DNA of 64,000 nt from Amoebophrya sp. A120. Its lineage: Eukaryota; Protista; Dinoflagellata. Position 1 is the stretch's first letter; every line of letters begins with the position of its first letter. Where the stretch lies: assembly GCA_905178155.1 (NCBI GenBank), contig CAJINV010000007.1:2461151-2525150 (forward strand), read 5' to 3'. The notes below the pieces were generated by a model that saw only the letters and a list, made by a program, of their open reading frames with translations, made no database searches and was not told where the DNA came from. The position numbers were made by a program, and so were the translations under genes. Positions 3,901-59,800 of this stretch are shown here, one piece after another.

Positions 3901-6687
3901 AAGTGGTCCTACTTGCGCCGATGGTTCTTGCACCAGCACCTGCGCATTAGTCGCTCTCGTCGCACTCTGGCTTTGCTCTTGTTTTCCCGGACTGCTGACC
4001 AACCTGACGTCGCTGCCCACAGGGTTCAGCAATGGTCCGGTCCGGTTTTGGTCGGGGAACGTCGAGAATATTGGCTCAACGCCGGGAATCATGGGCTTTT
4101 GGACCTGATAAGATAAAGATGCATGGATCGATGTTGTCACAACCATAAATTCAATTGTGAGAAATATCCGCTTAGAACTTTAGGCTTCACTCCACGTGAT
4201 GAACACCTTTTATGTAAGCATGACGCTACACAAAAGACTACTAAACGACATCAATGCAGATAACCAAAATCGAACCCACCGCAGTACCGTCTTCGGCTGC
4301 TTCAGCCCCACCGTCCTACTGCCAGAGCCGGTGAATGACAGTGGCTTCGTCAGAAACGCAGACTCTTGCAACAACGGCGTGGTGTGCAATATAGAGCTGG
4401 CCGTGGCGGCGCTTAGCGGAAGTGCCCGGCTAGTGCTCTGCGATGTTGAAGGTGGATCCGCTAGTCCTGCGCCAGGCGGTGGTAGTCCAAGGGTCAAGTT
4501 CACTGGGGGCTGCAGATAGTTTACGCCGGTACTAGGTGTACTAATCATGCCCGTGGTCGTGCCGTGCTCGCCGCCTACGGGGGAGAAGTTTTGTTGATGT
4601 TGCACCATCCCCGATGTGACCGACGAGAAAAACACAACCCGCCCATCTGGCAAAATCGCGCTCGAGGGTGCGTAACGGATGCTGGTAGCTTTGTAGTACT
4701 GGGACTGAGTAGTTGGAGAGCCAGGGGGGGACGAAGAAGAAGACCTCTTTGCGGCCCGACTCCCACTCTGGATGTTCTCGTCCTCCTCTTTCGGACTCCC
4801 CGGTGCCGGCGGTGATTTTGTTACATTGTCCTTACTGTTTGTCTTTGTGCTGTTTTCTTCCCCCGCCGCGTGGCCGCCACCGGAACTACGAGCTAAAGCA
4901 GGACTCGCTGCGCTTGACAACGCCCCATTCACGACAGCCGCGCCTTCCTGTTGCGTCGCCCGGTTCACCGCGCGCTTCAATTTCTGCCGCGCGCCCTCGA
5001 CGACGAACTTCTTTCGCTCCTTCTCCCGTAGCGCCGCTGCCTGCTCTTTGTCCTTCTCGCTTTTGCTTTCAAAAAGCGACGCCATGGTCGGGCGCGCGTA
5101 GTGCGGCAACTCCTTCTGTTGCTCCTGCACTCTTTTCACCACGTCAGCGAAAGATTTCATCTTGGTCTTCCGTACTGGCTGCTCTACGTCTTGAGCAGAA
5201 TCTTCTTTATCATAACTGTTGGCCGCCGCCGCAGTCGGCGTTGCGGTTTGCGGTCTTCTTGTGGAAGAAGCAAACACCGGCTTGAAGCGTGACGGTACAG
5301 AACTATTTCCATTCGATGCAATATTTGTTTTCGTCGTTGCGTCCTCGTCGTACTTGCTCAACATGCTCGCATTTTCGTTTCCATTTCCTGACGCTGTCTC
5401 GTGCAGATCCACGCGAACTGTCGGTGTTTTAGCATGTTGTTGCTGATGCAGTTGCTGCTGGATGTTCTGTCGTACCACTGCCGTTGCGCGCCCTTCGGGA
5501 AGAGTTGTGCCCGCTTTAGTGGTCTCGGCGTGGTAATCGTTGCTGTTCATCGTATTGTTTCCTCCAGCATCGAAAACACTTACCCTTTCTTTCCGCTCCA
5601 TCTGTTGCAACAGACCCTGAACGAGCTGCAAACTCTTCCCCAAATTCTGTGGCGTTCTCAAATGTTACATTCTCAACTGTTACATGAATTTGTAATGCAA
5701 GAACGGCGAAAGTGAAAGGTGGAAGATTGCGCCTTTTGCATTACAGATTTGGCACAGATTTAGATGCTGTCTAGCCCTTCGGATATTTGTCATGCGAAGC
5801 AGCTTGATCGCGGCGATCTTGGTGGTGCATTTGCATCACAAATCATGTAACAGTTGAGAATGTAACAGTTGAGAACGCCATAAATTCAGACTGACCCGGT
5901 CCGCCGAACTGGCACTGGATACCCTAGAAGCCGTCCGGGCACCTCCGTGGTCGGCACGCACCGGGCCGGGGGGATGAAGCACTTTTTGGAATCGACCGTT
6001 CAGCGGATGACGAGAAGGAGCCCCGTTTTCTTGTTGAGCATGGTGGTGTAGCTCCAAAGTGGCAGCTGCGAACGCCCCGCTGGCCGTAGTCCTCTGCGCA
6101 ACACTAGACGCAGCTGTTTCTCGTTGATTTTGATGTAGCCCAGCATCCACTTCATTTTGATTATCATTATGATTTGTTTCGGTTAAATCACTCGTCACCA
6201 CGCCGTCCTGTCCAAACTGCCGCGGTGTCTTCACCGTCTCGAGGCGCACGTTTCGTAAAAAAGGTTCCGGAAACTTCGTGTTTTCGATCAAGCGAAACAC
6301 CTGCGGAAACGCCTTCCTCGACAAATTCAACGCGTCCATATTTCTCGCCACGTTGTCGGGAAGCGCTTTGCTGCCGTGGCGGGCCGGAGCGCTGGTGGCC
6401 TCAACGTAGTTTTTTGTACTACTATTCGGTGGAGGGACCGCAGAGCCTGAACCAGCAGAAGGTGAGCCACCCACGACTGGAGCCACGCTCGGTGACGAGT
6501 TTAATGCGTTCAGTTCTCGCAACTGTGACTGCTCGAGCACGCGTCTGGGCGTATTGCTCGGAACAGAACTCATCCGTGTCGCCAACGCCTCGGCGTGCAA
6601 CCGCATTTTCCGTCGGGTCCGCTCGGTCAAGTCGTGCGTGTCCATGATCCGCGGTGTTGTGGAACCAAAAACGGAAGACGACATCAT
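962..6687 (-). CDS. Large low-complexity protein with C-terminal PDZ domain (multi-exon)
   Basis: ORFs 5836..6687, 4210..5661, 1741..4146 and 962..1390 join in frame via introner 5648-5882 (RVSLN|LGKSLQ), a probable GT-AG intron ~4106-4285, and introner 1431-1751 (KPPI|EQRLY). Last ORF has a PDZ signature KLGFGF...SWAETSGVQKGEYIVKVCG. The 3' end may continue into small exons at <600. Confidence 0.65.
1431..1751. mobile_element. TIR introner, 321 bp, TSD TAGGC
   Basis: Left end tatcaaagtgaaaaaagcccccaccccata vs reverse complement of right end tattgcaatgaaaagtcccccctccccata. taggc at 1426-1430 and 1752-1756. Removing 326 bp restores frame. Confidence 0.85.
5648..5882. mobile_element. TIR introner family A, 235 bp, TSD AATTC
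   Basis: ~40-bp TIR t(g/a)tggcgttctcaa(a/c)tgttacattctcaactgttacatga. aattc at 5643-5647 and 5883-5887. Removing 240 bp joins two ORFs in frame. Homologous to 57393-57627 in opposite orientation. Confidence 0.93.
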
Positions 6688-7151
6688 ATATAATGCTGCG
6701 CGATCAAGAGATTTGTTTGGATTTGCTATAGTAAAAATCCGTCGATGAACACTACTTGTCGAGCATGGCGAAAGAAGATGCGAGTGCTTGAACTTGATTC
6801 TGATCCTCGTTGGCCAGTTTTGCTTTTGGCTCTACCAGGACCGGGACAGCAGGAAAAACCTCCACATAGGCGTAACTACTATACTCTACTGCCCTCCTTC
6901 TAAAAAAAAGCTGAAGCTACTAATAGAAAAATGGGAGCAAGTGGAATTCTTTGTGCAATAATGATGAATCGGAATCGCAAACGCAGTGGGCATTTGATAT
7001 ACTCCAGTAACCACTGTAGTTTCTACTTTCGGTTCTGTTGACTCTTCGTATCAATTTTTTACGATGTGAAAGCTGTACATCTTCATACAACGACTGAAAC
7101 GATTAATTACGATTTCATACCCACGACCACGAGGTTGATCAACATGACAAG

Positions 7152-7208
7152 TGGCTGCAAAACGATCAGATCAGATCAGATCTGATCGTTTTGTTGGCTG
7201 CAAAACGA
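7152..7208. repeat. Perfect 15-bp-stem hairpin plus short direct repeat
   Basis: caaaacgatcagatc (7158-7172) pairs with gatctgatcgttttg (7179-7193); tggctgcaaaacga occurs at 7152 and 7195. Confidence 0.75.
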
Positions 7209-8187: not shown

Positions 8188-10918
8188 TTAGGCCGTTCCA
8201 CTTCCTGCACTGTGCTCCTCCCCAACCTTCTTGAAGTGCAGATCCCAATCGTACGTTCGCGCCCACTCCGGGGTGTGCGCCGAGTCGATCCACAGAGCTA
8301 AGTCGCGGTCCTCCTTGTGCTTGAAATCTGGGGCACGCGGGTTCCGCTTGTCGTTGCGGCAATCCAACCTGAGGTTGCAATTGATGCGTGCATCATAATG
8401 CATTCTCATGCTTCCTGACTGATTATTTGGACAAATGCGCGAACACGATGAAGCCGCACGGCATGTTGACAAGAATCACAAAAAAACCTCATACCAGTCT
8501 GCTCCTTCCATTTTCAAAGATTCCCACTTCTTCTCCACCGGGATGTACGGTTTTCGCTGGTAATTGTTTCGATACGGCGACCGCCCGAACGAGTTTCCAC
8601 CGCTTCGCGGGTAACTGTTGCTGAAAGATGAATGCTATACATTGCAAAAGTAGCATCCTTTGCTTTCCTATCCTCGTACTACTTTTAGTAGAAATAGCAT
8701 TACAGATTTTTCCAGAAGGGAAAATAGGATTTGTTGTGCTGCTTTTGCTATAGAGACGAGATATGTGTGTCATGCTGTAGTGCAATAGCAATTAGCACGA
8801 GTGCGAAGATACTTTTGCAATTCATAACCGCGGTTGCCCGTACTGCGACCGGGGCGGGAGACTGAAGAGCGTTTTGTTCGAGATTTGTAGTTCTTCATCT
8901 TCTGCTAGTCCTAGTGCGGGTAGTTCTATTAAATCCACAGTTTCTACATCAATGAGTCATGTCTTTGAACCATAACGTTTCGTTGCGTTCCTTTCGAGTG
9001 TTATCCACAATGATCACACACCCAAGCGGCCCATTGGACCGCGCCTATTCATTGGGGCTGGGCGAAGCAGGCCGTGCCTAGTGTCCCTAGCGGGGAACAG
9101 CCCACTCCACCACCTGCCCCCAGGCGGGCAAGACCCCCCCAGAACCCCACCTACGGTGGTTGAATGGGGGGAAACGCGCCAGCCCCAGCCCCACTTGCCC
9201 ACCAGGGGAAAACAGAAAACCCATCCACGGCAAACAGAGCAACCTTCCAACGCGGGCAAAAGTCGCTATAATCAGCAGCAGAGGTGGCTTCGCGTTACCT
9301 TATCCTTACCCGAAGGCCATCACAAAGGAACGTAGTAGAAGAAGCATAGACCATATTTGCAAGGAAAGTGCGCGAAGCGGCAGGCAGCGCCTCCTAACCG
9401 GTAATGAGTAAGAGAAGCAAAGCCCTTCCACGAAAGTAGAAGTAACACTCACTACACCCTAGCCAGCAAGGCCCTGAAGGCAACTCACATCCGCGTCTGG
9501 TGGAACAGCTAGCAACCAAGTAGCAAGGCCAATACCCGCACCATCCAACTGGAAATCCCCGAGTATCACCCGTGCAATATCCAATAAGCAGTACAGCGCC
9601 AGAGTCCCCAAGTCCACCCCCGCAAACGGAAGGAGCTGCCCAAAGGAGGACTCCCGCCCACGTCTACTGCAAAAGAAAGCGAAAGAGAGAGACTAATATA
9701 TATCCGGCGAGGCGGCAATACTGACGTGGCAAACCTACAGGCAGGAGAACAGCGCCGCCATGCACTCCGTCCACTGAGAAACGTCGCAGAGAACGGCTGC
9801 GGTGCCCCACAGGGGAGCGGACAAAAGCGCCGGAAGACCGAAAACTAGCCTAAACCTCCATTCCGAACAAGGCCCGCGGCCCCCTCCCGGGGCGAAGAGA
9901 TAGTTGCGCGCCCAAACGAGTTTCCACCGCTTCGCGGGTAACTGTTGCTGAAGGAGGACCGCGGTTGCCCGTACTGCGACCGGGGCGGCAGACTGGAGAT
10001 ACGTTTGTTCGAGATTTATAGTTTTTGCAGGTCTTCCTCTTCTGCTAGTGCGGGTACTTAGTTCTATTAAATCCAAAATTTCTACACCAGTGCCTCATAC
10101 TCATGTCTTTGAAAAGCTATGACGACTAAGAATACTGGTCAAATTGATCCACTTTGTAGCCTAACGCTTCCAACGCTGCTGCCATGTCCGGTTTTCCTTG
10201 GTAAACCTGAAAATGAAAAAATGGTGTGATCATGATCAACATATAAAAATTCGGCGGGACAAGAACTGTACAACTGTCATTTCGCGGGTGAAAAAAATGA
10301 CTTCACGGATGAGTGTACAGCTAGCATCGAAGTGGTCGAACTCACTGCTGCTGTTTCCTTGCATGAGCCCTGCTGTAGTATGCCGCTTGTAACTACTACT
10401 AGTCTTCTTGAGTTGTACATCGATCAATTCTTGAATAGTACCCTTTCCCGCATCAGCCACTGCTGATAATCCTTCGGCGTTTGATCAATTGCAATCCCCC
10501 GGTGCTTGCCGAAGCGCATCACATACTGCGGACGGCTCCCGTCACTTATGCAAGAGTTGCGCAAAAGTATCGCTATACCTATAGTCGGTATTGTACTGGT
10601 ACTAGTATAACATAAGCTGCAGCTAGAACTTTCCCAAGCTGCATGATGCTAGTTCAAGTAGAGAATGAAAAAATCTGTAATTATTGCCAGCGCCACGAGT
10701 GCTGCGATACTTTTGCAAAGAATAGCAGTTGTGTAGCACCGACTGGACGAGGCTGCGGTACAACTTGCGCCGCCCAGGAGATATTGAAACCTGCCTGCAG
10801 AACAGGATGTGTATGTGATGGGGACGGCTGCGCCACCAAGGGTTGCTAAATTTCGCCCTATCACTGATTGCACCTGAGGAGTCAGCGCTCCGGTGGTCGT
10901 GCGGGAAGCCACAAACAT
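8188..10918 (-). CDS. Putative organellar ssDNA-binding protein: DUF3820-like (FGKH.G) motif + OSB-type PDF motif (multi-exon)
   Basis: Manual splice gives MFVASRTTTGALTPQ|VSISPGRRKLYRSLVQSVLHNC|ISDGSRPQYVMRFGKHRGIAIDQTPKDYQQWLMRER|VYQGKPDMAAALEALGYKVDQFDH|LPPRSQYGQPR|SSFSNSY...EKKWESLKMEGADW|LDCRNDKRNPRAPDFKHKEDRDLALWIDSAHTPEW... GT-AG introns 10207-10441, 8862-10135 and 8369-8494; introners at 10555-10724 and 8636-8826. Contains an internal exon duplication. Confidence 0.6.
8636..8826. mobile_element. TIR introner family F, 191 bp, degenerate TSD (aatgc/accgc)
   Basis: tatacattgcaaaagta vs revcomp tatgaattgcaaaagta. Removing 8631-8826 gives CAA CCG CGG TCA TCT TTC, matching the uninterrupted duplicate at 9908-9992. 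Confidence 0.88.
9908..10113. repeat. Diverged duplicate of 8581-8969 lacking the introner (empty site)
   Basis: Blocks acgagtttccaccgcttcgcgggtaactgttgctgaa and accgcggttgcccgtactgcgaccggggcgg are adjacent here but separated by the element at 8636-8826. Similarity continues through the intron to catgtctttgaa. Confidence 0.9.
10555..10724. mobile_element. Decayed TIR introner family F
   Basis: gcaaaagtatcgc...gcgatacttttgc inverted pair; right end resembles that of 8636-8826; flanks gcaag/gcagt. Removal keeps frame (HNC|ISDG). Confidence 0.6.
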
Positions 10919-17846: not shown

Positions 17847-19068
17847 TCAGCAAGGGCGGGCGCCAAGCAGCGGAGGACGTACTACTACCTCCCGACGCCC
17901 CGCCCGGCCGAGTTTGGTGCAGGGAACTCGGAGTGCCGAGCAGGCTCGTTGCGGCCGCGCCGAGATTTGGCGCGACAAAGGACTGCCCTTTGAGAGAGGA
18001 TCTTATTCCCTGAAAATTTTCATTTTTCCCCGGCCCTACTTATCACTTTTTACAAGACAGAAGCTGAAGCAGGCTCTTCGTCTTCTTCTTCTTCTTCATT
18101 TTTTGCATGACAGATTGGACTATGGGAGTGATAAATATAAATATAAATTTTCAGGGAATAGACTTGGTCAAGGGTGACTGAGCGGTGGAGGAAGACAGCA
18201 GACTGTGAAGACCCCCTCCAGAAGAGTGCTGCAAGAACAGCCCAGGCGACGCAGCAGTGGCGGAGCAACCTGTCGTGTTGAAAAGTGTGGCTCCACCTGT
18301 AGTCGTCCCGAGTCCACCTAGATGCACCTGTGTCAGCAAGCCTCTCGTGGAAGAGGTCGAAGCCGATAAAGGATGGTGCTCGCCGGTTGATAGGTCCTGC
18401 TGCGTTATTGCTGTAGCAGTCCCTCTCATGCTGGACGAAGAACTAACTTGTCGCGACGCGCCCCCGGCGCTGTTGATAGGTGGGGCCGCACCGCCGTTTA
18501 CATTTACACCAAGATGAGAAGAGGTTGCAGCAGCACCACCGGCAGCTAGCGAGGCGTCCTTTGCGGGAGCCGGTTTATTGGCCGCCTTAGATCCAAGAAC
18601 AGCGGCAGCGCTCGCATTAGTGGTTGTACCATTGCCTTTATTACTGTCAGGCGCAAGTGCTGCAGCGTCGGAAGTTTTAGCTGAGGTTGAGCTTGTTTTC
18701 ATCTGTGACAGTTGTTGCAAGCAGTGCTTCAAAAGTTCGTTTCCAGCCTGGTATTTCTTGTCGAAATCTGCATCTACTGCTTCGTTACATTCAGGATCAG
18801 CTGCTTCTGATGCGGTGTCCGAGCTACAACTTGAAGCATTTATATTTTCATTAGAGCTCTCCCCCGGCCTAAGATGCTCATCCATATAGTCTTCCTGCAA
18901 TTCACTTACATATTCCCGCAACATCGCCCGGACGTCTCGCCGGAGACTCTTGCACACCGCGTTTTCCTTCTTTCGCTGTTCGAGCTGGTCATTCTTCTTT
19001 TTCAGCATGGACCGCAGCCGGCTTTCGGGAGTCCGGGTCGCGGTCGTATTTGATGATGTCGCATTCAT
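17847..19068 (-). CDS. Hypothetical coiled-coil/low-complexity protein
   Basis: ORF 18151..19086 continues in frame (LTKS|SLKGQSFVAP) after removing introner 18004-18160 plus 5 bp. 3' end uncertain; may extend into ORF 17509..17853. Confidence 0.55.
18004..18160. mobile_element. TIR introner, 157 bp, degenerate TSD (gatct/gactt)
   Basis: tattccctgaaaattt at both ends in inverted orientation; contains gcatgacaga. Confidence 0.8.
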
Positions 19069-40800: not shown

Positions 40801-43497
40801 GTCACCAGCACCATACTCCTCATCGGTCAGCACAGATTCCTGGTACAACAGGACTTCGCCGGCGCGTGCTCTCCTTCTTGTCATGATTTCTTGTTGATTG
40901 TACAGCTCCACTCCTTCAAGAGCATCTGTAAAGTCAGTGGAACCTTGCGGAAGAATCTGTTGGTCCACCTCATCCTCGTCTGGCATATCCGCGATTTGAA
41001 AATCTGGTAAGATCTGGTCATTTACCGCAAACTGCGAGCGCGGGTCCCGCGTCGGCGGCCGCCAGTGCCACTTCTCCAGCAGTTTTGCAATCTGTGCGCC
41101 GGTGGTGCCGACTTTCGGTTTCTTGCTCGTAGTTGATGTTGTTGCGTCAGGAGGAATGGTTTGAAGGAGGTTGTTGACGCCGTTATTGTTGCTACTGCTG
41201 TTGTTGTTTACCAGTTTGCTCATCATTGTACTACTCCCTTGATGATATCCTGGCTGGCCGACTGTTGGCGTTCCCGGAACGGTTGTACTACCACCGGGCA
41301 CTGTAATGGTTTGGGTCGACAACCGTAGCGATGTCATCAGACTCGTCGTTTTTTGTGCTAGCAAGGTCAATTGCGGGACACCACCAGCGGGACCTCCTCC
41401 ATGCGGTTGAGGACCTTGGTCAACATCTGCCTGCTCCAGAGTAGTTGCGATTGCAGCCAAATCCATCGTCGAGGCCCGCTCGAGAAGTGGAGGGATTTCG
41501 GCTGCCCCAGCCCGATCTGAAGCGGGTGACTCTGTGCCCGGATTAGAATTACGTTTTCGTGGCAGCACGTTGGCGTCGTTTTTGCTCAGAATCTTTTCTC
41601 CTGCAGCTCCAGCTTCTGCATAAAAATTGTTGAGCAACAAGCCATTTGAAGACAAGTTCCCCAGTGAGTCATTGGGAACCAACGGCGCCCGGGGCCCTTC
41701 TCCTGCCCCTGTCGCGTCTTCGATTTGATTCGACGGCCGCGGAAAACTGGGACGCTTCGACGTGGTAGTAAACCGGTCTTTCAGTTTGTCGAAAACCTTC
41801 TTCGCCGCTCCTTTACCAATTTCTGTCGGCGTTCGCATGCCCGTCTTGCGGTGGTTTGGGTTATTTCTGATGTTGTACTCTCCAGCACCATTGTTGAGAA
41901 ACAACCTTGCGGCGGAGGGAACAGATTGAACAAGCTCTTTGAGTGGAAACAACCGCTGTTTCGCGCACCCAATCGCTGTCTTGCTCAAAGCGTCCAGGAC
42001 GTCTTTCTGGAGGCTGACAAGCTTGCTTTTGCTGGTCTTCAATTGTTTCTCTTTCTTGTCGTTGATGATGTTGTCCCCGTCATGTTTACTGTCTTCAAAA
42101 AGGTCCCGATCGAAACCGCTTTCGCTGCTATCCGTCGGCATTATGGACAGCGCTCCTACTACACTACCGGTGGGATTCTCAACACCTTGAATTGCTGGAA
42201 CCGCAGCCAGTTGGGACGATGAGCCCATGTCTGCAATGCTAAGATGCTCTACTTCTTGTGTGCCGGCTGCACTGCTACCTGCTCTACCACCAACATTCGT
42301 GATCGCGACTTGTTCCGTTTGCGCTTGCCTCCGCACCGCGAGGACTTTCAAATGCTCCCTTCTCGCGATTTCCTTGTCGAATTTCTTCAAGATCTTTCGC
42401 ACCGCGGTGCAGTTTGTCTCCGCAAACTTGATCAGCCGATCAATTTTTGCGCCAAGCTCGTGCCCGGCTCGTCGCGCGGCCTCGAGGTCTTTCGGGGAAA
42501 AACGGAAGAAACCGTTCGTGGCTGCTTTCACTTTCGAGCTGGAAAATGACCCTGCACCAACAGACGTGCTATACGACATTGAAAAATTTGTATCGTTGCC
42601 GTTATTGTTCCTCACTTCGTCGTGGTAGTAGTTCGCCAAAACAACACTACCGCTGCGCGCACGGGAGAGTTCGTGTGATGTGGAGGGTCTTTTATTCTGA
42701 TTGTTCTCTGCAGCAAAAACCCCCTCCTCCACGCTCACATTGCTCCCCCGCGGAGGCAACATCACACTGCTGGTGACCGTCAGTGCGCTGCCCAGGGCGC
42801 CGAACTCGTCCGCGCCACGTCGGCGCTCGCTGGAGGACCGGCCGAGGAGCGTTGTAGTACCATCATCATGGGTCGTAGTACCGGAGGAGCGAAGCGTCTC
42901 GAAGTTGTTGTAACCACCGGTGTGATGATGCGGATCTTCGTTGGAGGAGAGATAGAGATAATCCGCATCCGCAACTCCTGGTGGTGCACCAGTCCCACGA
43001 GTGGTGGATGACGAGTGCGGTCGCTTTTCAGAATGATCATGTTCTTGGTCTTGAACAGGTTCATGATTTGCCGAAACTACTGGGACCACATTGACATTGG
43101 TAGAAGTCGAGGTCGCGGCAAGGTGAGGAATTCCGGTCTCCCTTGTTGCGCCATCATGATCTCGATCACGCAGCTTTCGTTCTCCTTGCTCCTTTGCAAG
43201 AACATTATTCCCAACTAGCGCCGAAGTTTGTGGTGTCCTCCCACCTGCGGGGGCACCACCTGACCGCTCCAGCACCCGTGCCCATTTCGCGACACTGTCC
43301 AAAAGCCGGGCTTCTTGGTGCTCGTAAAATCTGGTGAACCGTAAAATGTTGTTGCCGAGTTCCTGAAGAAACCGCTCGTGGTAGGAGAGGTCGCGGACCA
43401 TCTCGCTGATGTAATCCTTGAGCACCTCATAGCTCACGTAGTAGGCGCGCCACTCGATCACCCGGTCGCGAACGAGTTGCTCGCCGAAGGCGACCAT
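37837..43497 (-). CDS. SPX domain + SLC13/DASS-type permease with TrkA-C-like loop, intronless
   Basis: N-terminal MVAFGEQL...EWRAYYVSYEVLKDYI and FAETNCTAVRKILKKFDK (SPX). Permease motifs AWAGFSN, MSNTAVMSILTP, LMPLSY...SSNLI and SPVSYQTNLMAFAAGGYSFNDFPRLGLP. Confidence 0.9.
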   Translation of the reverse strand: MVAFGEQLVRDRVIEWRAYYVSYEVLKDYISEMVRDLSYHERFLQELGNNILRFTRFYEHQEARLLDSVAKWARVLERSGGAPAGGRTPQTSALVGNNVLAKEQGERKLRDRDHDGATRETGIPHLAATSTSTNVNVVPVVSANHEPVQDQEHDHSEKRPHSSSTTRGTGAPPGVADADYLYLSSNEDPHHHTGGYNNFETLRSSGTTTHDDGTTTLLGRSSSERRRGADEFGALGSALTVTSSVMLPPRGSNVSVEEGVFAAENNQNKRPSTSHELSRARSGSVVLANYYHDEVRNNNGNDTNFSMSYSTSVGAGSFSSSKVKAATNGFFRFSPKDLEAARRAGHELGAKIDRLIKFAETNCTAVRKILKKFDKEIARREHLKVLAVRRQAQTEQVAITNVGGRAGSSAAGTQEVEHLSIADMGSSSQLAAVPAIQGVENPTGSVVGALSIMPTDSSESGFDRDLFEDSKHDGDNIINDKKEKQLKTSKSKLVSLQKDVLDALSKTAIGCAKQRLFPLKELVQSVPSAARLFLNNGAGEYNIRNNPNHRKTGMRTPTEIGKGAAKKVFDKLKDRFTTTSKRPSFPRPSNQIEDATGAGEGPRAPLVPNDSLGNLSSNGLLLNNFYAEAGAAGEKILSKNDANVLPRKRNSNPGTESPASDRAGAAEIPPLLERASTMDLAAIATTLEQADVDQGPQPHGGGPAGGVPQLTLLAQKTTSLMTSLRLSTQTITVPGGSTTVPGTPTVGQPGYHQGSSTMMSKLVNNNSSSNNNGVNNLLQTIPPDATTSTTSKKPKVGTTGAQIAKLLEKWHWRPPTRDPRSQFAVNDQILPDFQIADMPDEDEVDQQILPQGSTDFTDALEGVELYNQQEIMTRRRARAGEVLLYQESVLTDEEYGAGDQIEFLSTSSCTYFLSSTVQDLFLNVILSIDVLFPIMAAILCFVGWQNDLCKLFVEDADFVAIPGEEPLDPEDKNLPIPSWKPWLTIWTTAVVLRLLVTGWPSDGTLIFATLWLCLVGVLDLEQAWAGFSNNVVLSVAVLGVVAQGVEQTGSVERIFSTVLGNPKGKFKEATLRLLLPAIVLNVGMSNTAVMSILTPILEKWSQQIGISKNMFLMPLSYVLLISGTVAIFATSSNLIAQGLMIEHNQKPFGTFEIAPVALCSTAVTLLAVLLLMEKLFPDLAEVECDDDAGTSSFAVEDDDAATQMLTPSDYLKTPAGDHLMAAAEQQEEARRVGVVAATAGPQLQQPLLDNSMAAGVDAFFKSSGTATKGDTTTSNKRDETASISKPAAKQVEKHSTASHGGAAAAPPPPPRERKDTKRFLLSVQMSSPEYLGKTLAECDFLKSVNEVIQVERLGQKVNFSNTTTGASSSALNTGQLQQHTAGAGGVSTAGTVGVSPTTETTQQQSSFTFQYYDIVHMYTSAAQVVAIHRNAGLHVLCRDVGDPVVHRLADSMEIAEIVLDAACPLLQQPMCSDQVRRNYGAKVLAVRPLYLTESLRGALFGPTPDKTKIAKAVQEFAAMELKGRKFQLGDTLLVLAREGFAERHVGSSEFFGVRALYQPSLDGGIESSTSLEKKAKKEQKRKSTSAGRTSQVKNLVHAGGGRVDESKNVEQGSYNKVKLKGDLLAEDKLDERNENQAHDPTSDAGALEVKHSASSLENLQQLEQAGEDFSVSTSKQPSLLARIRTFFDDERQQKQAASLLILAVMILSVSTDTIPLLSASMAAAYALVATKCLSKDQAIAAVKLRTVLTIVGAFGLGDAIGRTKVALLVASGVTTALSPFGETGLLIGIYLVTVLLGIVFHATAVVILIFPVCLDAAQSLGVSVHRAVTILMIGAGCQMLSPVSYQTNLMAFAAGGYSFNDFPRLGLPIVLLIGIVAVPATQVFIE

Positions 43498-44204
43498 GGT
43501 TTTGTACTGGAGAAAAATGGGAAATAAAGGCTGAGGCCAGCAGCCACTCTGGGTGTAAACCAAACAACTGGCGAAACAGCAATAATTTTTTTTTGTACTT
43601 GTTTTCTGTAGTTCAGCCCGAAGGCGCCTCAACAAACTCATTGTCATAATTCGCAACCACACTCAGAGATGAAATAGACCAGCTCGAAGATCGCGTCTGA
43701 CACTGACACTCAGGCGTACTAGCTGTTACTTGTCAGAAGTTTCTCGCTCCATCAGGAAGTTAAGAAGTAGTAGTACTAAGGACGACACTTGACTCAACAC
43801 ACAAATGATATGCATCACGAATCACGTCTTCTTCTTCAGATAAAACAAGAGTTCGCTGAATGTGCAGAAAGTCATGACACATCAGAAGCCATCAATTTAT
43901 GATGATGAAGAGACGCGTGAGTGGTCGTAATTCATTGTACTTTATGTTATTTTCTCCACGGAGATGCGCAAAAAGTAGAGGCCACGCCGGCCGCCAGAGA
44001 TTCAGTTCGTTTCTTTATTCTCCATTTTGTGATTGCTCTTGTCGCAAATTCAACTTTTTATCGTATTTTGTCACTTCTAGTGATGAAGTAGGTTCTTGTT
44101 GTATGCTCTATGTTGACACGTGTCGCTATCTATCGAATGAAATCGAAATCAATCAGATCCAAAGCCGAACATCGGCCGCATGTTGAATGATGTCCATAGC
44201 CCTA

Positions 44205-47200
44205 CTACAGATCGTCGTCGTCATCCAGCCTTCTGATTTCCTGGTACTGCAAAAGCATCCCCGGCACGCGTGCCCGTTTTGCCTCCTCCTGCTGCTTCTG
44301 CAGTCGCATGGCCTCGTCCCGGGCCGCCCGCCACTCCTCCTCGGCGCCGCCGAAGACTTTTACTTCCTTCAAGAAATCCGAAACGTGGACGGAGAACTCG
44401 TTTGCCTGCTGGCACGTATTGAACAATCCGAGAACCATATCGCAAGAAAAAACTGCTTCACTGTGAACTTGTGATGCAGAAAATGGAGCACAGAACTATT
44501 TGTCTTGCTACACCTACAAGACACTGGATTTTCAAGCGTGTTTTCCCTTGGGAAACGCGCATGGCAAATTTTCTGTGTCATGTGTAGCAAACTTGTGATG
44601 CGATTCGTACAAAATCATCACAGTGAAGCAGTTTTTTCGTGGGATAGACAAAGGTTTCAATTTGCGTCTGGTTCAACGTATTCGGAAACGTATTCTGGAA
44701 GAAATCGACTAACAGCTGCATGCACTCCTTTATCCAGGAAAAAACACCCATCCCCATCCATGTTTTGCATGACAAATAGTGGACTTTATGCATGTTTTGC
44801 ATCACAAATTGGATGGGGATGGATGTTTTTTCCTGGATATCCTTCTGCGAGAACGCGAGCGGGTTTTTTGTCCTCGCACCGTCAGAAGGTACTAGGTTGG
44901 AAGAGGATGCAGCTGGGTCGTTGGTCAGCGAGAGAGCCGCTAAGCCGCCAGAACCGGGCTGCTGCGTGGACGCGAAGCCTCCTGGACCTAAGCCAAGTGG
45001 TCCTGCACCTGTGCTGTCGTGCGAAGCGTCGTGGCAGCCGCGAACCAATTCCAAAAAAATCTCCACCTGGTGTTTCAGCCCGCTGGTGTGCATGGTGTCG
45101 GTCAGAATCCCCAGAACCGCATTCAAAATCAAGGCATAAAACTCGCGAAAGAAGGGCTTCGACGCTTCCGGCGGTAGGGATTTTAGCACCTGCTGCAGAA
45201 ACTGCGAGAGAATCTGCAGTGCGGTTTGCGACACGACGGGATGTTCGTGCTTCATACCCCAGAGGAGGGAATTCAGGTACAACCGCATCATGTCATCGCG
45301 CAAGCTGAACAGAGAGCTGAAGCAGTCACGGTTCACGGCGGAAAGGAGGTCGAACCTGTCGTGATAGATCAGTGATATAATTTGTTTCGCAGGTGGACGC
45401 GTCGAAAACTCGAAAAGACAACGAAGCAAAGCTGCTGAAAAATTCGAAAGAACAGAAATTGGCAAAATGAAAATCTAGATCTATGTCTATCACTATCTAT
45501 CATGATTCCATCTGACTATCATTCCATCTAACAAATGAAGGACGAAGGTAGTACAATTTGATCCGATGGTCTGGGAAGCTCTGCATGTCGCTCTCCAGCA
45601 TCCGCAGCGTCGGCGCGACAATCATGTCGAAGATGCGCGGCATCTCCGTTGATATCGGCTTTCCCAACTGCGTCACTAACGTTGTCAGCAAATCCAGCAC
45701 TTCCGCGTCCCGCGCTTCCGGCACACCATTTTGGTAGTCCTGCAGCACCGGCTCGAGCAAAGGGGGGACGACGAAGGTCGCGACCTCCTGCTCCAAGGCA
45801 GCGGGATCTTGCTGTAATTGCAGGAACAGCTGCTGGGACTGCTGCGTGGTGTCGTTCGGGCCGAAGGTGTTCAGGTCGGCTTGCTGCTCTGCGGCTAGCG
45901 CGGTTGCGGAGCACTTCTTCAGGTACGTGGTCACCAGCCTTAGGGTTGCGCGCTTCGCGGTTCGCATCTGCCGGACGTTGGCGAGCTTCAAGGCATTCGC
46001 GCCGGAGTTGCTCATATTCGGGTGCATTTGTATCATTTCCGCGGTCTTCTGCCCAATGTACTGCGAGAATAGCTTGTAGAGCTGCAGTGAAGAGCTGTAA
46101 ACCGCGCGAAATTGCTTGGTGAAAGCTAGGCCGACGGTCCCGGCAACGCGCTCATTCAAACGGAGGTACTGAAATTTATTTGTGGTTTTTGATATTTCCG
46201 GACCCGGAGTTCTTTCTGCATTCTTTTATATCTAGCATGCGTCGTGAAGGAGAAGGACCCAAAGTCGAAGTTGTCAACTTGCAGCCAAGAAGCTGAACTA
46301 TTTACTGTCACTAACCAAGAAATTCTACGTTTAAGTTAATCCGACGCACCAGTTGTATCTATACCAACGCCGTTCGCTTGAGTTCGTCAATGTTTTCGCA
46401 GAGGCTTTTCCCTTGGTCAATCTGGATGTGCCGGATGGTATTGACGAAGATGTCGTTGAAGATAGAGAGCAGCTTTTCCACATACTGCTCCCGGTCCACA
46501 GGCCGCGCGGCGCCGATCATCATGCCAATGGACTCGTAGTAGGTGGTGATCAGCAGGTGGTCTAGGTCGTTGATGTTGGATTTTGTCATCTCCAGAAGTT
46601 CCACCAGAAACGGTTCCGCCGCGTCCGGCTGGGTCGTCACAAACTTTTTCTTGCACCTGATAACGTAAAAGTTCAGGAAAACAGTAAAGGTAATATGATC
46701 TATTTACACAGAAAAAAATTATTCATGACAGCACTGATAACTAAAAGTGCTATTAGTTTATCAGTAACGTCGTGATCCTGAATAAGGCAGCAGAATCGAA
46801 AGACATTGTCGCAGTGGAAGTGATAGCACGATTGAACAACAAGTTGCGCAGTGCTTTAGTAGCTGAATCAGTTATGTACTTTTGCGTGATCCGCAACAGT
46901 GTGTCCACGGCCATTTCCTGCACGCCCGGAAAGGACTCGTGCATGAACTCGATCAGCTTCAAGATCACGGTTTTCAGAAATCTCCAGTGCGCCCGCAAGA
47001 AGGACGGATACTGCCCCACCACGTACATGATGTTGCTGGCCACAATCGCTTTGTTTTCCTTCCCCCGCTTCAGATCGCACAAGGCCAGCAAGTCCTTGAT
47101 CACGGACACGAGAAACCGTTTTTCGTGGTTCTCAGAGAGAGCCCCCGAGACGGACCCGATCGCGTAGCACAAGCGGTTCAGGTTGCCGGGCGACCACCGG

Positions 47201-51175: not shown

Positions 51176-54100
51176 TCAAACTTGTGAATGTGTTGCTACA
51201 GCTCGTATTTCACATAATTCTTGTGGGTCATGCCAAAGCTGCATCGCAAATCTTTGCATCGTTCCAGACGGAGACCTATTTTTTGCAGTGGATAAGTAGA
51301 TGATTTTGGAGAAGATGCAGACGACGATGCCGAGCAGGGAAACGATCACCATCCCGTGAATATCGCAAGAAAAAATATGTTTCACTTTAAATCTGTAAAT
51401 GCAAAGGATCCTCCATCACAAAAGATGCCGCTGGGCTGTCGTGCTACACATGCAAAGCAATATAAATATAGCCGTATTTATTTCTCCTAGAGACAATGCT
51501 CGCATGATGATGTTGACACATTTTGATTGTCTTTGTCATGCGGAAGAGCAAGAAACCTGTGAAGATGCAGCAGCTACTAGCCCTGCTGCTACATCAACTT
51601 TGCTAAATCACTACAGTGAGACAGTTTTATTTTCGTGCGATAGTTCATCCAGCTCGTGTAAAACATTTGGCTTTCCGCGGCCCGTTTGATGGCATCCGTC
51701 TGCTCGGAAACCGACATCACCTTCTTGTCCGTCTTCGCGGCTTCTTGGGCCTGATATGAACGTAGTGGTAGTTTTTGATCTTCTTGTTGAGACAGCACAG
51801 GATGGTCATGGTCGCGCCTCTATCTTGTTAGAGTAAATTCATTCGAACCTTGGAAAGGAGTAGCACTAGGCAAAACTACATCATCTCAGTTCGTTCTATA
51901 CCGAGGTGGAAACCGTTGCCAGCTTCTGCGTGTCTTCTGCGCTGCTTGAGATCACGTTTTTGATACTTCCCATCTCCTGCCGAAGTTCGCGCAGTATGCG
52001 GTCTTTTTTGGCTTTTTTCTCCGCGGCGCTCATCTCAATACGCCGCTTCTCGCCTTCGTCTGTATTTGAGTTTGTTTCATCTGACGGAGTTGTAGATCGA
52101 CATCGATTTTTGCACTTAAATAATATCTGAGCATCACAGCTGACGTTCATCATGTCGTGACATTGGTGCAGACCACCATCTTCTATTCTGAATGAAAAAA
52201 CGAGATGAATTTGTTCTCAAACAGCGCTACTTCGTTCTATACCCAAGACGTAGTGGATTTCGTTCTTCAACTTGAGCGCGCTGGCTTCCATGTCCAGCAT
52301 TTGGGATTTCACGTGCAGCAGGGTCCTTGCCTGGCTCTCCTCCGTCTTGTGACTGCCCATCACGTACTGCTTCAGCATGCCCAGGATGCCATTAATCGCT
52401 TCCGTTTGCTCGCGCTGGTTCTCTATGCCCTGCTCAGGCGGAACGATTTCTTAGGTGGAACAAGGTCGTGGTCAAGCCGAACGCTGTCTCGTCTGAAAGG
52501 GAAAAGTCAAGTCTGAATCTGATGTGATTCATCGTTTGCTCCTGCCTATTTGCATTACAAACTTTACGCAGATCATTGTTCCAATGTGGTCGTTTGGAGT
52601 TGTCTTGGAGATCTTTTACTGCCATGCTGGACTTGTTCATGACAAATTCTTCCAGTTCAAATCGTTCCGTCTGAGGAGGCCATACTCTCAAACAAAAAGT
52701 TCTTTTTGTGAAGGTCTGCGTACATGTCCCGAATTTCCTCAGCGACACCGGATTATGAGAGTGCACAGAGCTGCTCCCGCCCTTCATTCATAACTTGCAA
52801 TTGCGAAATATTACTTGTTTCACTGCTACATCTACAGTCCACCGTGACTTGCGGAAGATTTAATTATCATGCGGAAGAAGCATCCTTTGTGGAGTGCTTC
52901 TCGTTCTCCTCTTGCTGCTCATGCATGATTCGAAATGAAAAGAGGGAGTGGAATCGTGCACTATCGTACAGACATCTCGGAGCCCACGGTGGCGAGGTTG
53001 TAGTTCCAGCTGTTGGATAATTTGGATCTTGATTCATTTATTCCTGCTTTGTAAACTAGGCACAGATTGTGAAGCCGTAGTAGTTGCAGGCGAGGGTGGA
53101 TGAACAAAATGCATATAGTTAGATGCAACATGGAAAAATCATCAGTAAAGTTTAAATTTTCTACGTGCGGATCTTTTTCACCGCCGCCCTGAAGTCGCCG
53201 GGTGCCTGTCCCGCGACTTTGGGCGTCCCGCTCCAAGCTGACCAGCCCATGTAGGTCCGCTTTGGGGGTTCGTAGTCTCTCAGCATGCAGACATGGCGCC
53301 AGTAGTGGGCATTGCGGTCGCTGGCAGCGCTCGTGCCCGTAGCCGCGAATCTGATTTTTTTTTATCAAAAATCAAAAAAAAATCGACGTTTCGCGTATAG
53401 CTATAGAATGCGAGTTGATAAACCACACAGGGAAGAAGTAGCAAGAAGGACGAGGTGGACGTCGAGCAGAGAGACATAGAGCTGTTCTAGCAAATAAGTA
53501 CATATTAAATTTTCGATCACAAATTATCTATAAATTTTACTTGTAGTCCACGCTGACAGATCCGGCTTTCACCCGCACTCGAACGTCCAGTGGTTGATTT
53601 CGAAAATCGATTTTCATTGCGTTTTTGTCCGGGAAATTCACACCCATCTGGAGTTTCTCTGAGCGCGGTGTTCTGGTACCTGCGGCGTTTGTTTCGTTTG
53701 TCAAAAAAGAACGAAGCGTTTTCACGCAATTACATCACAACTACCCGCCTGCTGCGTGGATGATGACTGCAAACAAAACCTATAATAGGGTGACTGATGG
53801 AGATGGTGAAGCAGAGTGGTAGGTGACATACAACATCACTACACAAAATTAAAACTGAGCACTTCTTCTATACAGCTCAAATTTGGGTTCACATTCCCGG
53901 TCTCATCTTCGATCGAGAAGATGAGGCCAAACCCCCGGAGCGTCGTGTCGTGGCCGAGGAAATCGTACCCCAAGTGCGCCAAATTGTCGTTCCAGTCGCT
54001 ATATCAAAAGTAAAAGTGTCTGGGTCTGGAAACTTGTGATGCTGGGTGGCGTCTCATGATGAGGCTACGAATACTGGCTCAGCATGGCAAGTTTCTGAGC

Positions 54101-55088
54101 TCCTAGGTGTTGCCTATTCTGCATGACAAACTGCGGCTCTGCATCACAGAAAAACGGAGCTCTTTCTGGGTAACGTGCGTGACAGATTTAAGAGTCATGC
54201 CAGACAAGCATGACAAAAATGAATTCTTCCAGACCCAGACATTTGTGCATTTGATACGCTATCAGCCTGGTTCATCGGAGAAGAGCCGACGATGTTTTTC
54301 GCGTTCAGCACCGACGTGACTTGAAAGTCCGTCAGCCAAAATGCCACGCCGACGTTCCGCGTCTTCGGGATGATGTTCAAGGCGGACACCTTTCAGGTAG
54401 TTGATGTGGGGACCGACGATGGGGGAGAGCAGGACGACGATAAATTTGTATTTGATGGAATACGGATAACAATTTCAACTTCTACACGTTCACATACTGT
54501 TTACTGCATGATCCAATTCCACCAAGTAATTATGATCAAAGCAGAAAGAAGAACCCACTCTAACTATACATCCAGTTGAAACTGCACTTCCCAGTTGTCT
54601 GTCGTTATCGCTTCCCGGTTCCACAGCTGGCCGCTCCTTTCCGTGACGTCGGTAAACAGCTGTATCTGATCCGCCATGGGTATCGCGCAGGATTCTAGTG
54701 ACCATAGAGCCAGCCCGTTGTCGGTTATGTTCCCGTCCCGGAACGTGTGGTGTACTAATTCTATCCATTTCACCCGCTCGCCCCTTCTCCTCGGCGTGTG
54801 CATAGTGTCATACGCGTATTGCGGGGGCTGGTTGGGCGGGGGTGGCGGGTTTTCCGTGGCAGAAACGCCTGGGATCATGTTGATCGAGGGGAGCAATACG
54901 AGGGAGGAAGATAGTATCGCTGGTATAATTGATGTTGCTAAAGCTCCTGCTGCGGTTGAGATTGCTGAGGAAGAGGTGGATGCCGCTGCACTACTAGAAG
55001 TACCGCCGTCGCTGAAGGGAAAGGGGGAAGTACTGGAGGAAGCGGCCAGGACGCCAACAAGGACGCCACCGGGTCGAACGATCACCAT
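51176..55088 (-). CDS. ERGIC-53/VIP36/Emp47-like L-type lectin with coiled-coil stalk and TM helix (multi-exon)
   Basis: IQLFTDVTERSGQLWNREAITTDNWEVQFQLDV, GVAFWLT, LRGFGLIFS, IDFRN, YMGWSAWSG, coiled-coil exons, TM GMVIVSLLGIVVCIFSKII. C-terminal tail uncertain. Confidence 0.75.
51361..51642. mobile_element. TIR introner family D, 282 bp, degenerate TSD (gtgaa/gttca)
   Basis: tatcgcaagaaaaaa... left end; ...ttttcgtgcgata right end. Removing 51356-51642 joins SWMN|GMVIV in frame. Confidence 0.82.
54002..54256. mobile_element. TIR introner family B (same orientation as 25912), 255 bp, TSD CGCTA
   Basis: cgcta at 53997-54001 and 54257-54261; interior colinear with 25912-26164; join QADS|DWND. 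Confidence 0.94.
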
Positions 55089-56838: not shown

Positions 56839-59800
56839 TCATGCCTGCGAAGAACCTCCAGCTGCGATTCCATCCGCCAGAACGTGCTTTACTTTTTTTG
56901 CCCACTGGTCCCGAACCTCTTCGCTGCGAAAAGTAAGCTCCAAAACAGGCGTGTTTACGCTGCTCCACCTGCCGTCGTTGAACAGCAGCACGATTTCCAA
57001 ATTTTGCGTCCGCTGGCCGTGCTGGTTCTCAAGGTAGATATGGATGTGTCAGAGTTGAAATCGACAAAGTTGAAATAATTTGCCATGCATAAAATGGATG
57101 CCAGTTGGAACCCAGTTTCCAAGTGGCGCATGACAAATTTCGGTGGTCCCTAAATCCAGTTTGTCATGCTGTTTAGGCAAAGAAGAGTGACTTTCTCATG
57201 CTACTTTAGCAGCTCGAGCTGTAGCCCTAAACAGGCTTACAATCGACCTCACTTGCCTGCTCTGCAACGCACGCGCCTCGGGTCATGCGTTTTATGCATT
57301 GCAAATTATTTCAACTCTGACGATTTCAAACCTGACGCTTCCATAGTAGATGGCGAGATCGTACACCTCTGTTTCGTACTCGTCGCTTTCGATATGGCGT
57401 TCTCAAATGTTACATTCTCAACTGTTACATGATTTGTCATGCAAAATTCCAATCAGAATCGATACGACCATGCTGCTTCGCATGACAAATTCCCGAAGGG
57501 ACAAACAGGATGAAAATCTGCGCCAAATCTGTCATGCAAAAGGCGCAATCTTCGCCCTTTCAGTTTTGCCATACTTGCATCACAAATTCATGTAACAGTT
57601 GAGAATGTAACAGTTGAGAACGCCATATTCGACGGGGTGCGTTTGAAGCTCTTCAGAACTGTCAAGAAAGGAGGTTTTCTTCATCGTCACAAACTTCGCG
57701 CCAGTCCCGCTGTTCATATATCCGCAGTAAATAAAAATTTACCGCACACATACAACTACAAATCAATGGGGTTTCGGCATGACAAACATTGCGCTCAGTA
57801 GCGGAAGCCTTACTTACAAGCGTTGCTATACATATCTAAGTAAGGTCTTTGTGATGCATTTTGTACGTGTACGGGATGAAATTTGCATTGCGTATCACAT
57901 ACCGGAGATTCACGAACGCGAATGGTGCGGTCTTCTCGCTGTTTGCAAGGAACAGCAACCCGCAGGACAGGTAGGCGAAGCAGATCTTGGTGTTATTTGT
58001 CTGGTTCTCCGTACTGCTGCCCTGCTGTTGGCCCCGAGCAGATAGCGGCTCGAAACTTGTACTGGATGAGAGAAGGGCCCTTGTAGGTTGAAACGCGGTG
58101 GCAATCTTCGTTGGAGAGGCCTCATGCGAGTCGAGGTCGAGGATGATGTTTTTCTCACCAGATGCCCCCGAAGAAGCAGCAGCACCATCTCTAGACGCAG
58201 AAGCAACCAGATCTATCGAAGTCCAGGACGCTGCAACTCCTACCGCTGACAAAGCATTTTTTGCTTTTGATTTAGAGGTTGTCCGTCCATCATCGAGCAA
58301 GTTGCTATTGGACGCGATTATTGTCGTACTACCTCCCGGGGTGCTAGAAGACCACCCTCGCATCATCGTGGACATCGTGCTGACAACCACGCGCTGCGAC
58401 TTTGCTGCTGCGCTACTTTTTGCATCTTTCATATCCCCTTTCTTCAGCTCATCCACCTTCGCCGTGGGAAAAAGCTGCATCGATGGAGCAGACGCTCGAG
58501 CGTTTTTCTGTTTTCCCTTCGCGCCACCAGCTGTGCTGTCCCCTTCTAAGTTTCTTCCGCTCGTCGAGGCACTGCTCCGAGCGGTGGTCGACGCCGTTGC
58601 GGCTGCAGAGGATCCTGACATCGCGACGTGTTCCCCCAACACAAACCCTAAATTCGCATACCGCGAGCTCCTTCTGCCCGTGGATTGCGCTCGTCCTGAT
58701 GTGGTACTAGTCCAGATTGTGTCGCTACTGCGCGCCGTGAAGTCCCCAGAACAAGTAGAAGCTCCTGCTTTGTTGATATCGTGCTGCGGAGAAACGACAT
58801 CTCTTGCCAACATGGGTGGACCACGAGGACCTTGTGTATCTGCAATTGATGCGGTCAAGGCGCCGCATGAAACTGTATCTGTAAATGCACTTCCTTCCGC
58901 ATAATTCAGCATCCTTGACGCAAACGCCTCGTCGTGCTCAAACACTGTGTTGTGACTTGTGAAATTCCCGGTGAAACTCCGCACCAACTCGTCCAGCGAA
59001 ATTTGGTTGAAGTTCGCGTCGCAGAAGTGGAGAATTACCGTTTCTGCGAGGACGTTGGCACTAGTTCCACTGCGGGGTTCTACTTGAAGCGACGAAGAAG
59101 TTGTAGTCGGCTTTGGTTCATCTTGTTCTACCGCTGGCACTAGTTGTGTAGCGCTAGTAGTCGCAGCAAAGCGCTCCAACAGTTCCACCACACTCTCCTC
59201 ATCTGTGAAGGCAACGATCCCGGCTTGCAACGCCGGAATCGGCTCAGCGGCAATCAGGTCGTAGAGTTGATGCAAGAACGGGGCTGCAGCGCTCTCCCCA
59301 TAAGTGTCCAAATCCCCAAATGTACTGTCAATGTTGCTGTTGAGACTGATCCACTCTTCTTTCCCCAATTTCCGATGCTGGATAGTTGTAAAAGTGCCCG
59401 GTGCGTCTCCTTCTACTTCCGCCGCGCCGGCAATCGTCAGCTTCGTGGAAGTTTCATCACTCTCACTATGCAGGTTGCAATGCAGCAGCACGCACGACGT
59501 CAGCAACCCGTACAACCCCTCAAAGCACTTCAATTGCTGCAACACCTCAATGCCCTCCGGTTCCCAGGCGTTGGGACGCTTGTTCGGTTCCTCGATGACT
59601 GGATTTATCTTGCTCGGCGACGAACCGGAGCCACCTCCTCGCCCTTGTTGCGCGTTCATCTGATGGCTTATTTGCACCGCATTGAACTTCCTTTCGCACT
59701 GTCGCCAGAATGTCATGGCGGTGTGGTACAGAATGCGGTCGTACGAAACGGAAAAACTTTCCCCAGCCCATTTTTCAAAAATTTGCATTCCCGTTTCTGA

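Follow-up and report, generated by a model that had tools for sequence, protein, structure and literature searches.

Introduction

Farhat et al. (2021, PMC7789003) described repeated non-GT-AG introns with inverted repeats and direct repeats of 3 to 5 nucleotides (nt) in Amoebophrya A25 and A120, and in the available text of that paper the A120 repeats begin with TAT, followed by seven looser bases and at least 3 A, while the way in which tens of thousands of non-GT-AG introns get removed is presented as an open question. Here we analyze a 64,000-nt stretch of contig CAJINV010000007.1 of Amoebophrya sp. A120 (hereafter the window), which contains introner elements of this kind running from TAT to ATA, and we report on the two orientations in which they lie in their host genes and on how they may be removed. 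We found no published statement on element orientation in Amoebophrya; figures and datasets may hold one. The main and supplementary text of PMC7789003 uses the word "orientation" of genes only, and the accessible parts of PMC9860276, PMC11282704, PMC12005148, PMC11453091 and PMC13326754 contain nothing on element orientation in Amoebophrya, the method of the 2022 survey (PMC9860276) having permitted opposite-orientation matches. The window elements match those of Farhat et al. in their inverted repeats, direct repeats, A120-type end and non-GT-AG boundaries; whereas repeat lengths and splice positions are variable in the available text of that paper, here the target-site duplication (TSD) is mostly of 5 bp and the length removed is the element plus 5 nt. 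To judge from these sequence features, the window elements belong to the described Amoebophrya introner class, with no difference in kind.

Two-orientation introners were reportedly described by Huff et al. in 2016. The introners of Polarella glacialis and Aureococcus anophagefferens work either way (Roy et al., preprint 10.1101/2020.10.14.339549), and in the accessible text of the preprint they share with the window elements that they are DNA transposons with terminal inverted repeats (TIRs), that an intron arises from either orientation and that the TSD restores the exon. They differ in using GT, GC or GA with AG sites taken from the element and the TSD, and in requiring target motifs (for example GHN6 or AGGH), whereas the Amoebophrya elements follow no target rule and allow GT-AG in 8/135 cases. 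Classes 6, 8 and 10 of those introners favour one orientation; here no bias was detected at this sample size.

The non-conventional introns of euglenids (PMC12501133, PMC11282704) are described, in the text available, as having non-canonical ends, pairing between these ends, direct repeats at the junctions and a proposed origin from MITEs (miniature transposable elements with inverted repeats). Non-canonical ends, end-to-end pairing (predicted here) and direct repeats are shared by the window elements, but their consensus is UAU-S with AAAA at positions 11–14 and not the euglenid one, in which CAG lies close to the 5′ end and CTG close to the 3′ end. In addition, pairing was tested by knock-in in Euglena, according to the consulted part of PMC12501133, whereas in the window elements it is predicted from sequence. 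Within A120, family 38 of Gozashti et al. (2025, PMC12130899) is, in the accessible part of that paper, an integrase-like TIR introner family with open reading frames; both it and the window elements come from the same organism and are bounded by TIRs, but the window elements are short and show no coding capacity. In fritillarid tunicates, the major spliceosome is adapted to non-canonical ends via a changed U2AF and modification of small nuclear RNAs (PMC13326754, available text); these introns retain preferred end dinucleotides (discussion of PMC7789003), whereas the acceptor here appears free. Both the elements and two-way introners have already been published; the value of the present findings lies in bringing together insertion both ways, the lack of a target rule and a cut register that can be tested.

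Introner families in both orientations

A preliminary description of this DNA had placed three introner families at defined positions in minus-strand genes, each with copies in opposite orientations. All 8 copies were found at the claimed starts, with TIRs and a perfect 5-bp direct repeat in 8/8:

5648-5882, minus strand: family A copy 1 (A1, 235 nt); TSD at 5643-5647 and 5883-5887; intron of 240 nt implied by protein P0004
57393-57627, minus strand: family A copy 2 (A2, 235 nt), reversed relative to copy 1; intron of 240 nt implied by protein P0003
25912-26164, minus strand: subfamily B1 element B1a (253 nt); intron of 258 nt implied by protein P0001; P0002 gapless over the junction
54002-54256, minus strand: subfamily B1 element B1b (255 nt), in a lectin-like gene; removal of element plus 5 nt restores the frame
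28130-28394, minus strand: subfamily B2 element B2a (265 nt), in the same gene as B1a; intron of 270 nt implied by P0001
30679-30941, minus strand: subfamily B2 element B2b (263 nt), host gene encoding a mitochondrial carrier; taking out the element and 5 nt yields HPADTLLSKINK
26355-26615, minus strand: family C copy 1 (C1, 261 nt); intron of 266 nt implied by P0001; P0002 gapless over the junction
31970-32136, minus strand: family C copy 2 (C2, 167 nt), inverted relative to C1, in the mitochondrial carrier gene; removal restores the frame

That the host genes lie on the minus strand was confirmed for A1, A2, B1a, B2a and C1 by exact mapping of P0001, P0003 and P0004, and for C2 and B2b by a Pfam Mito_carr match on the minus strand; for B1b it is supported only by an open frame, a coding score and a lectin-like Pfam match in an upstream exon.

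Elements were compared by self-comparison of the window, followed by local alignment of TIR-trimmed interiors against shuffles. In families A and C, one copy is clearly the inverse of the other. The interiors of family A scored 132 in reverse and 18 when colinear (shuffle maximum 21), and the whole elements are identical at 203/236 positions when one copy is reversed; those of family C scored 90 in reverse and 23 when colinear (shuffle maximum 30), with a large indel between the copies. Colinear interiors, which the preliminary description had named as grounds for giving up the claim, are thus not what families A and C show. For family B the claim stands in a weaker form. This family consists of two subfamilies, B1 and B2, whose copies in the window are colinear inside each subfamily (25912 and 54002; 28130 and 30679), and the mutual inversion of the two is real but weak: B1 by B2 interiors scored 37–44 in reverse and 22–26 when colinear (shuffle maximum 26–29), their consensus interiors 38 and 20 (shuffle maximum 26), and the reverse alignment was favoured in just 63% of 4326 cross pairs.

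Next to the two family A copies, the exon flanks (5613-5647 and 57628-57662) are also alike in reverse, with a score of 22. This score was reached by 10 of 20000 random flank pairs, which is borderline after multiple comparisons.

The named copies run from TAT (TGT twice on the plus strand) to ATA and have paired arms of approximately 25–50 nt, with an average of approximately 30 nt. A family-weighted profile of the ends over 43 clusters gave T.98, A.97 and T.95, followed by A at.80–.91 at positions 11–14, so that the RNA end consensus reads UAU, C or G, then a run of A at positions 11–14, both strands being alike; family A and the element at 57039 deviate from the A run. In related loci (see below), the TSD was 5 bp long in 73 of 98 anchored pairings, and several of the remaining pairings were mispaired ends. 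Stop codons were present in all three frames in 5/5 elements checked. With TIRs, a TSD of fixed length, a short body and no coding capacity, the elements qualify as MITEs, that is, as non-autonomous TIR transposons. The TIRs and the 5-bp TSD suggest that the elements were inserted by a transposase of the DDE/integrase type. A TSD of 5 bp would agree with a Copia-like integrase.

Probable removal of both orientations

Removal was inferred from deposited proteins, homologs and reading frames. The deposited proteins P0001, P0003, P0004 and P0005 mapped exactly to the minus strand, with 19 junctions corresponding to 13 elements and 6 GT-AG introns. At 13/13 element junctions, including those of A1, A2, B1a, B2a and C1, the implied intron was the element plus 5 nt, and B1a and B2a, which point in opposite directions, lie within one gene, that of P0001.

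Because deposited models cannot count as evidence independent of the original annotation, the homologs matter. P0002, which is 40–57% identical to P0001, aligned without gaps across C1, B1a and the element at 25620; at B2a its alignment stays in frame, with a gap of 2 residues nearby. This independent homolog thereby spans both B orientations in one gene. The exportin homologs P0006 and P0007 aligned across the elements at 44438 and 44731. In all, P0002, P0006 and P0007 keep the frame over six of the 13 element junctions. C2 and B2b interrupt a mitochondrial carrier gene: Pfam Mito_carr positions 3–38 and 33–90 flank C2 on either side, and both the Pfam match and HPADTLLSKINK, the mitochondrial carrier signature, return after removal of element plus 5 nt. 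For B1b, the evidence of removal is the reading frame alone. These data indicate that elements in both orientations are likely removed together with one copy of the TSD, leaving no scar.

Orientation and removed length in related contigs

A 19-base piece of the B arm used as a query matched at least 151 loci, 80 of them with long flanks, nearly all of these 80 being from one record series. These related contigs (L001-L151), which share no flanks with the window, stand in for the whole-genome count of sense and antisense insertions that had been proposed in the preliminary description; as the loci were chosen for an exact match to the arm, young B copies are over-represented. Strand was called with our own coding model, trained on the window exons and then on the loci; in the window, its training set, the model called minus for 19/19 elements. 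The listed loci contain 261 distinct elements, for 173 of which the strand was called, and a coding segment spans 137 on that strand. When the element plus 5 nt was removed, a coding segment crossed 112 of 154 junctions, compared with 12–17 of 154 for the element plus 3, 4, 6 or 7 nt, a test that distinguishes lengths modulo 3 only.

Both orientations were present in near-even numbers. Among the matches listed, exonic B2 copies were split 27:20 and B1 copies 9:15, neither of which differs from even; of the 12 clusters in which two or more copies were called, 11 had both orientations, and opposite-orientation pairs were up to 96% identical. Every B copy of the window has a relative in the listed loci that is 82–90% identical and runs in the reverse direction. 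When the two flanks of family B elements were called separately, their frames agreed in 16/16 and 16/18 cases by orientation. No target-site preference in element orientation was found.

In the window and in L001-L151, positions 4–10 of the family B arm alternate among a few variants (TATCAA, TATGGA, TATGCA) at either end of different copies. They change at the same pace as the interior, and the two ends may therefore exchange sequence. Locus L014 was considered as the orthologous site of the element at 28130 and rejected, since the flanks do not align: L014 312-590 and window 28122-28402 hold opposite B2 copies with the same 11 target bases in unrelated flanks, and a change at the end of one copy shifts its TSD. 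The B arm also matched two viral contigs, but with no second arm present these matches were taken as chance.

Splice signals and cut register

The TSD positions did not depart from background (p 0.1–0.6, n = 135) and, with all equivalent registers counted, a GT-AG intron is possible in the 8/135 cases given above and G[TCA]-AG in 19/135. Since the direction of the interior is immaterial, the signal for removal lies in the symmetric part of the element. The preliminary description had argued for such symmetric signals, and to this extent it holds; it had also contrasted them with the linear signals of the spliceosome (donor, branch point, acceptor), which are directional. This contrast is not supported, because any donor, branch point or acceptor within arms of approximately 30 nt is present both ways. 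A directional spliceosome is compatible with two-way insertion, as the ends are identical both ways over 25–50 nt, and a hairpin-guided enzyme cannot be told from a spliceosome on this ground.

A difference between the two ends was found in the terminal base, with 0 changes at the RNA 5′ end but 8 at the 3′ end (186 strand-called of 238 elements; p = 0.008, approximately 0.02 after three tests; recounted with a symmetric finder). Two of the 8 changed 3′ bases are not wobble-compatible. At positions 2 and 3, changes at the 5′ and 3′ ends numbered 3:5 and 4:2. Since the first-base constraint goes with the direction of transcription, it speaks for recognition at the RNA level.

The register of the cut was examined where the two TSD copies differ. 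According to the proteins, the upstream copy supplies TSD position 2 at 765, 44438 and 57719, and at 44438 P0006 and P0007 also retain the F that this copy encodes; for 8636, an element-free paralog in the window has the upstream copy at TSD positions 3 and 4. These retained bases place the cut late in the upstream copy. If it falls after TSD position 4, the elements begin N-UAY and the constrained U becomes intron position 2. Each of the 6 non-element introns that the proteins imply begins with GTAY; an ab initio prediction of GT-AG introns (34) was discarded, as known boundaries were not reproduced, and only these 6 were used. In Table S4 of Farhat et al. (PMC7789003, seen in the available supplement), 9/9 predominant A120 splice pairs start with N+T.

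Most imperfect TSDs in the related loci were uninformative on the cut register. Among 21 imperfect TSDs, a mismatch at position 4 was rare (1 compared with 5–7 elsewhere), with one row mis-registered and small numbers.

A proposed mechanism

We propose, with a probability of approximately 0.5, that the elements are removed by a spliceosome-derived machine that uses their symmetric ends, a donor defined by U at position +2 and an acceptor set by distance, and that works without U1; Farhat et al. (2021, PMC7789003) report, in the accessible text, most spliceosome proteins and U2, U4, U5 and U6 but no U1. A non-autonomous TAT...ATA transposon would enter an exon either way, between 5-bp duplications. 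In the pre-mRNA, the terminal arms would pair and bring the junctions together. The 5′ cut would fall one base before UAU, so that N|UAY acts like the local GUAY donor with its first base free, and the 3′ cut would fall four bases past AUA, placed by distance rather than by AG. The element would then leave with one duplication and the protein would be restored; as the ends are mirror images, flipping the element would alter nothing that the machine reads. The narrower version of this proposal, a spliceosome without U1 for which a U at intron position 2 suffices and which takes an acceptor four bases beyond the terminal stem, we put forward tentatively and consider somewhat less probable than even.

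Several points weigh against this proposal. The involvement of the spliceosome is itself proposed on sequence grounds. The first-base asymmetry is post hoc, three positions having been tested, and depends on strands assigned by our own model; TAG stands at two 5′ ends and position 2 is altered at three, hence UAY is not invariant. The cut may also lie at the edge of the element, after TSD position 5, and G at TSD position 5 is only marginally raised (53/141, p = 0.053). The positions of Table S4 depend on where an aligner places slidable junctions, and a placement preference could yield N+T. No branch-point signal was identified in the elements, and the arms have no excess of G-U over A-C, RNA pairing being predicted only.

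If the narrower version above holds, any TAT...ATA transposon with a 5-bp duplication would become an intron that leaves no scar, whichever way it faces and whatever its target, which would amount to a genome-wide licence for exon transposition. The question of removal is in any case narrowed, since the direction of the interior and the target are immaterial, the removed length is fixed and one RNA 5′ base appears to be required. The register N|UAY ... AUA+4 is specific and testable, and near-identical opposite-facing copies (up to 96%) are natural controls. The free invasion of exons by unrelated families would also be explained.

Alternative explanations

The arms bear on a different possibility, namely that a separate, non-spliceosomal cut-and-join activity reads the terminal RNA stem and cuts at fixed offsets, releasing a linear or circular intron, as proposed for euglenids. 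The preliminary description had included a stem-loop among the candidate signals, and each strand of all 8 named copies is indeed predicted to fold end to end, with 22–29 of the first 30 bases paired. Unconstrained donor, acceptor and target dinucleotides also fit such an activity, as do the absence of U1 from the available account of Farhat et al. (PMC7789003) and the need for end pairing in the splicing of such introns in Euglena (PMC12501133, accessible part). However, no selection on RNA pairing was detected: a wobble test on the arms counted 137 G-U against 147 A-C (p = 0.59), private changes were 41 G-U against 35 A-C in the arms and 105 against 94 in the interior. The arm blocks and motifs showed no difference in conservation between 5′ and 3′ ends. 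The sole constrained base sits at the U of the local GUAY donor, and the same genes contain GT-AG introns, so that a second machine would be required. We consider a stem-reading activity rather unlikely, although it deserves weight.

The other symmetric signal that had been suggested, a two-way internal motif, does exist. The motif GCATNACAAA is present on both strands of the elements, and it could be a two-way splicing signal, for example a branch site U-N-A-C (the sequence for branch-point comparison being GCAUNACAAA), the arms serving mainly for transposition. All 43 strict matches in the window lie within elements, which make up 8% of it, and the motif is common to families with different arms. 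Sense copies are concentrated in the last fifth of the element and antisense copies in the first fifth, often 35–49 nt from the end, and the motif evolves 2–3 times slower than the remaining interior. On the other hand, the sense motif is present in 128 of 153 exonic elements and missing from 25, and the sense 8-mer is missing from 4 of the 20 window elements, two of which are removed according to deposited proteins. Sense and antisense copies are equally conserved (3.1% and 2.2% changed, p = 0.39), with no strand-specific constraint, as expected of a transposase-binding site, and the motif has no match outside elements in the window, hence none in its GT-AG introns. A splicing role for the motif therefore seems improbable to us.

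Precise excision from DNA in some nuclei or life stages, as with the eliminated sequences of ciliates, would make splicing unnecessary. Independence of orientation, loss of one TSD copy and indifference to the target are expected of a transposase, and the window contains the element-free paralog of 8636, but this paralog could equally come from duplication before insertion or be a processed copy. The elements are retained in the assembly, the constraint on the first base tracks the transcribed strand (0 versus 8 changes), which excision does not predict, and we know of no separate somatic nucleus in this marine parasite; we regard DNA excision as very improbable.

Least credible is that the mRNA retains all copies, or those of one orientation, and that the junctions are jumps of reverse transcriptase between the 5-bp repeats across the hairpin, for, although a strong hairpin between short direct repeats is a known substrate for template switching and deposited gene models may rest on such reads, this idea is largely refuted by protein conservation: the five checked elements have stops in all three frames, elements break conserved exportin and mitochondrial-carrier sequence through which homologs continue, and, for either orientation, the frames on the two sides fit together once the element is taken out, as they would only if selection had continued to act on the joined protein.

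Further elements and genes in the window

The window contains 20 TAT...ATA elements, the 8 named copies and 12 more:

765-993, minus strand: element with TSD 4/5; intron of 234 nt implied by P0004; upstream TSD copy retained at position 2
1431-1751, minus strand: element in the P0004 gene; implied intron of 326 nt; a 94% identical opposite-facing copy in L042
8636-8826, minus strand: element with TSD 3/5; paralogous stretch at approximately 9890-10030 without the element plus 5 nt, bearing the upstream TSD copy
18004-18160, minus strand: degenerate element with TSD 3/5
25620-25818, minus strand: element in the P0001 gene; implied intron of 204 nt; P0002 aligns over the junction
44438-44646, minus strand: element with TSD 3/5 in the exportin gene; intron of 214 nt implied by P0005
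44731-44839, minus strand: short element (109 nt) in the exportin gene; intron of 114 nt implied by P0005
51361-51642, no strand assigned: degenerate element with TSD 3/5; flanks not clearly coding
52424-52684, minus strand: element with TSD 4/5; frame restored by removal
57039-57345, minus strand: element (307 nt) in the P0003 gene; implied intron of 312 nt
57719-57894, minus strand: element with TSD 4/5 in the P0003 gene, relative of 25620; implied intron of 181 nt
59742-60604, minus strand: element TAC...GTA (863 nt) in the P0003 gene; implied intron of 868 nt; no strict internal motif

Three host genes hold most of the elements with mapped proteins:

710-6339, minus strand: gene of P0004 (1549 aa, weak PDZ match), holding A1, 1431 and 765
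23951-28514, minus strand: gene of P0001 (1135 aa), holding B2a, C1, B1a, 25620 and one GT-AG intron
56842-62069, minus strand: gene of P0003 (ankyrin and Sec7), holding A2, 57039, 57719 and 59742

P0001 matched no Pfam family. Protein searches with window exons found three window proteins to be 100% identical to entries labelled Amoebophrya sp. A120. An Rfam search of the window gave no match, and neither did a PDB sequence search with one carrier exon as query.

The element at 59742-60604 has long imperfect arms with a nested hairpin at 60124-60222 and is removed in P0003 despite missing the strict motif; it is a candidate relative of a larger or autonomous element. The gene fragment near 8636-8826 is duplicated approximately 1.2 kb away (9890-10030) minus the element and one TSD copy, forming an empty site; as the shared frame is interrupted by a stop there, the duplicate may be a pseudogene, or else a processed copy. 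Between the duplicated fragments, approximately 0.9 kb of distinct composition (8976-9900) is possibly another mobile insertion. The intergenic stretch 28540-29010, a cluster of long hairpins nested in one another together with short tandem duplications, does not resemble the TAT...ATA introners and is possibly a foldback element. Finally, 37837-43662 contains one open frame of 1941 codons with SPX and citrate-transporter-family matches and no detected elements, which likely encodes a phosphate transporter.

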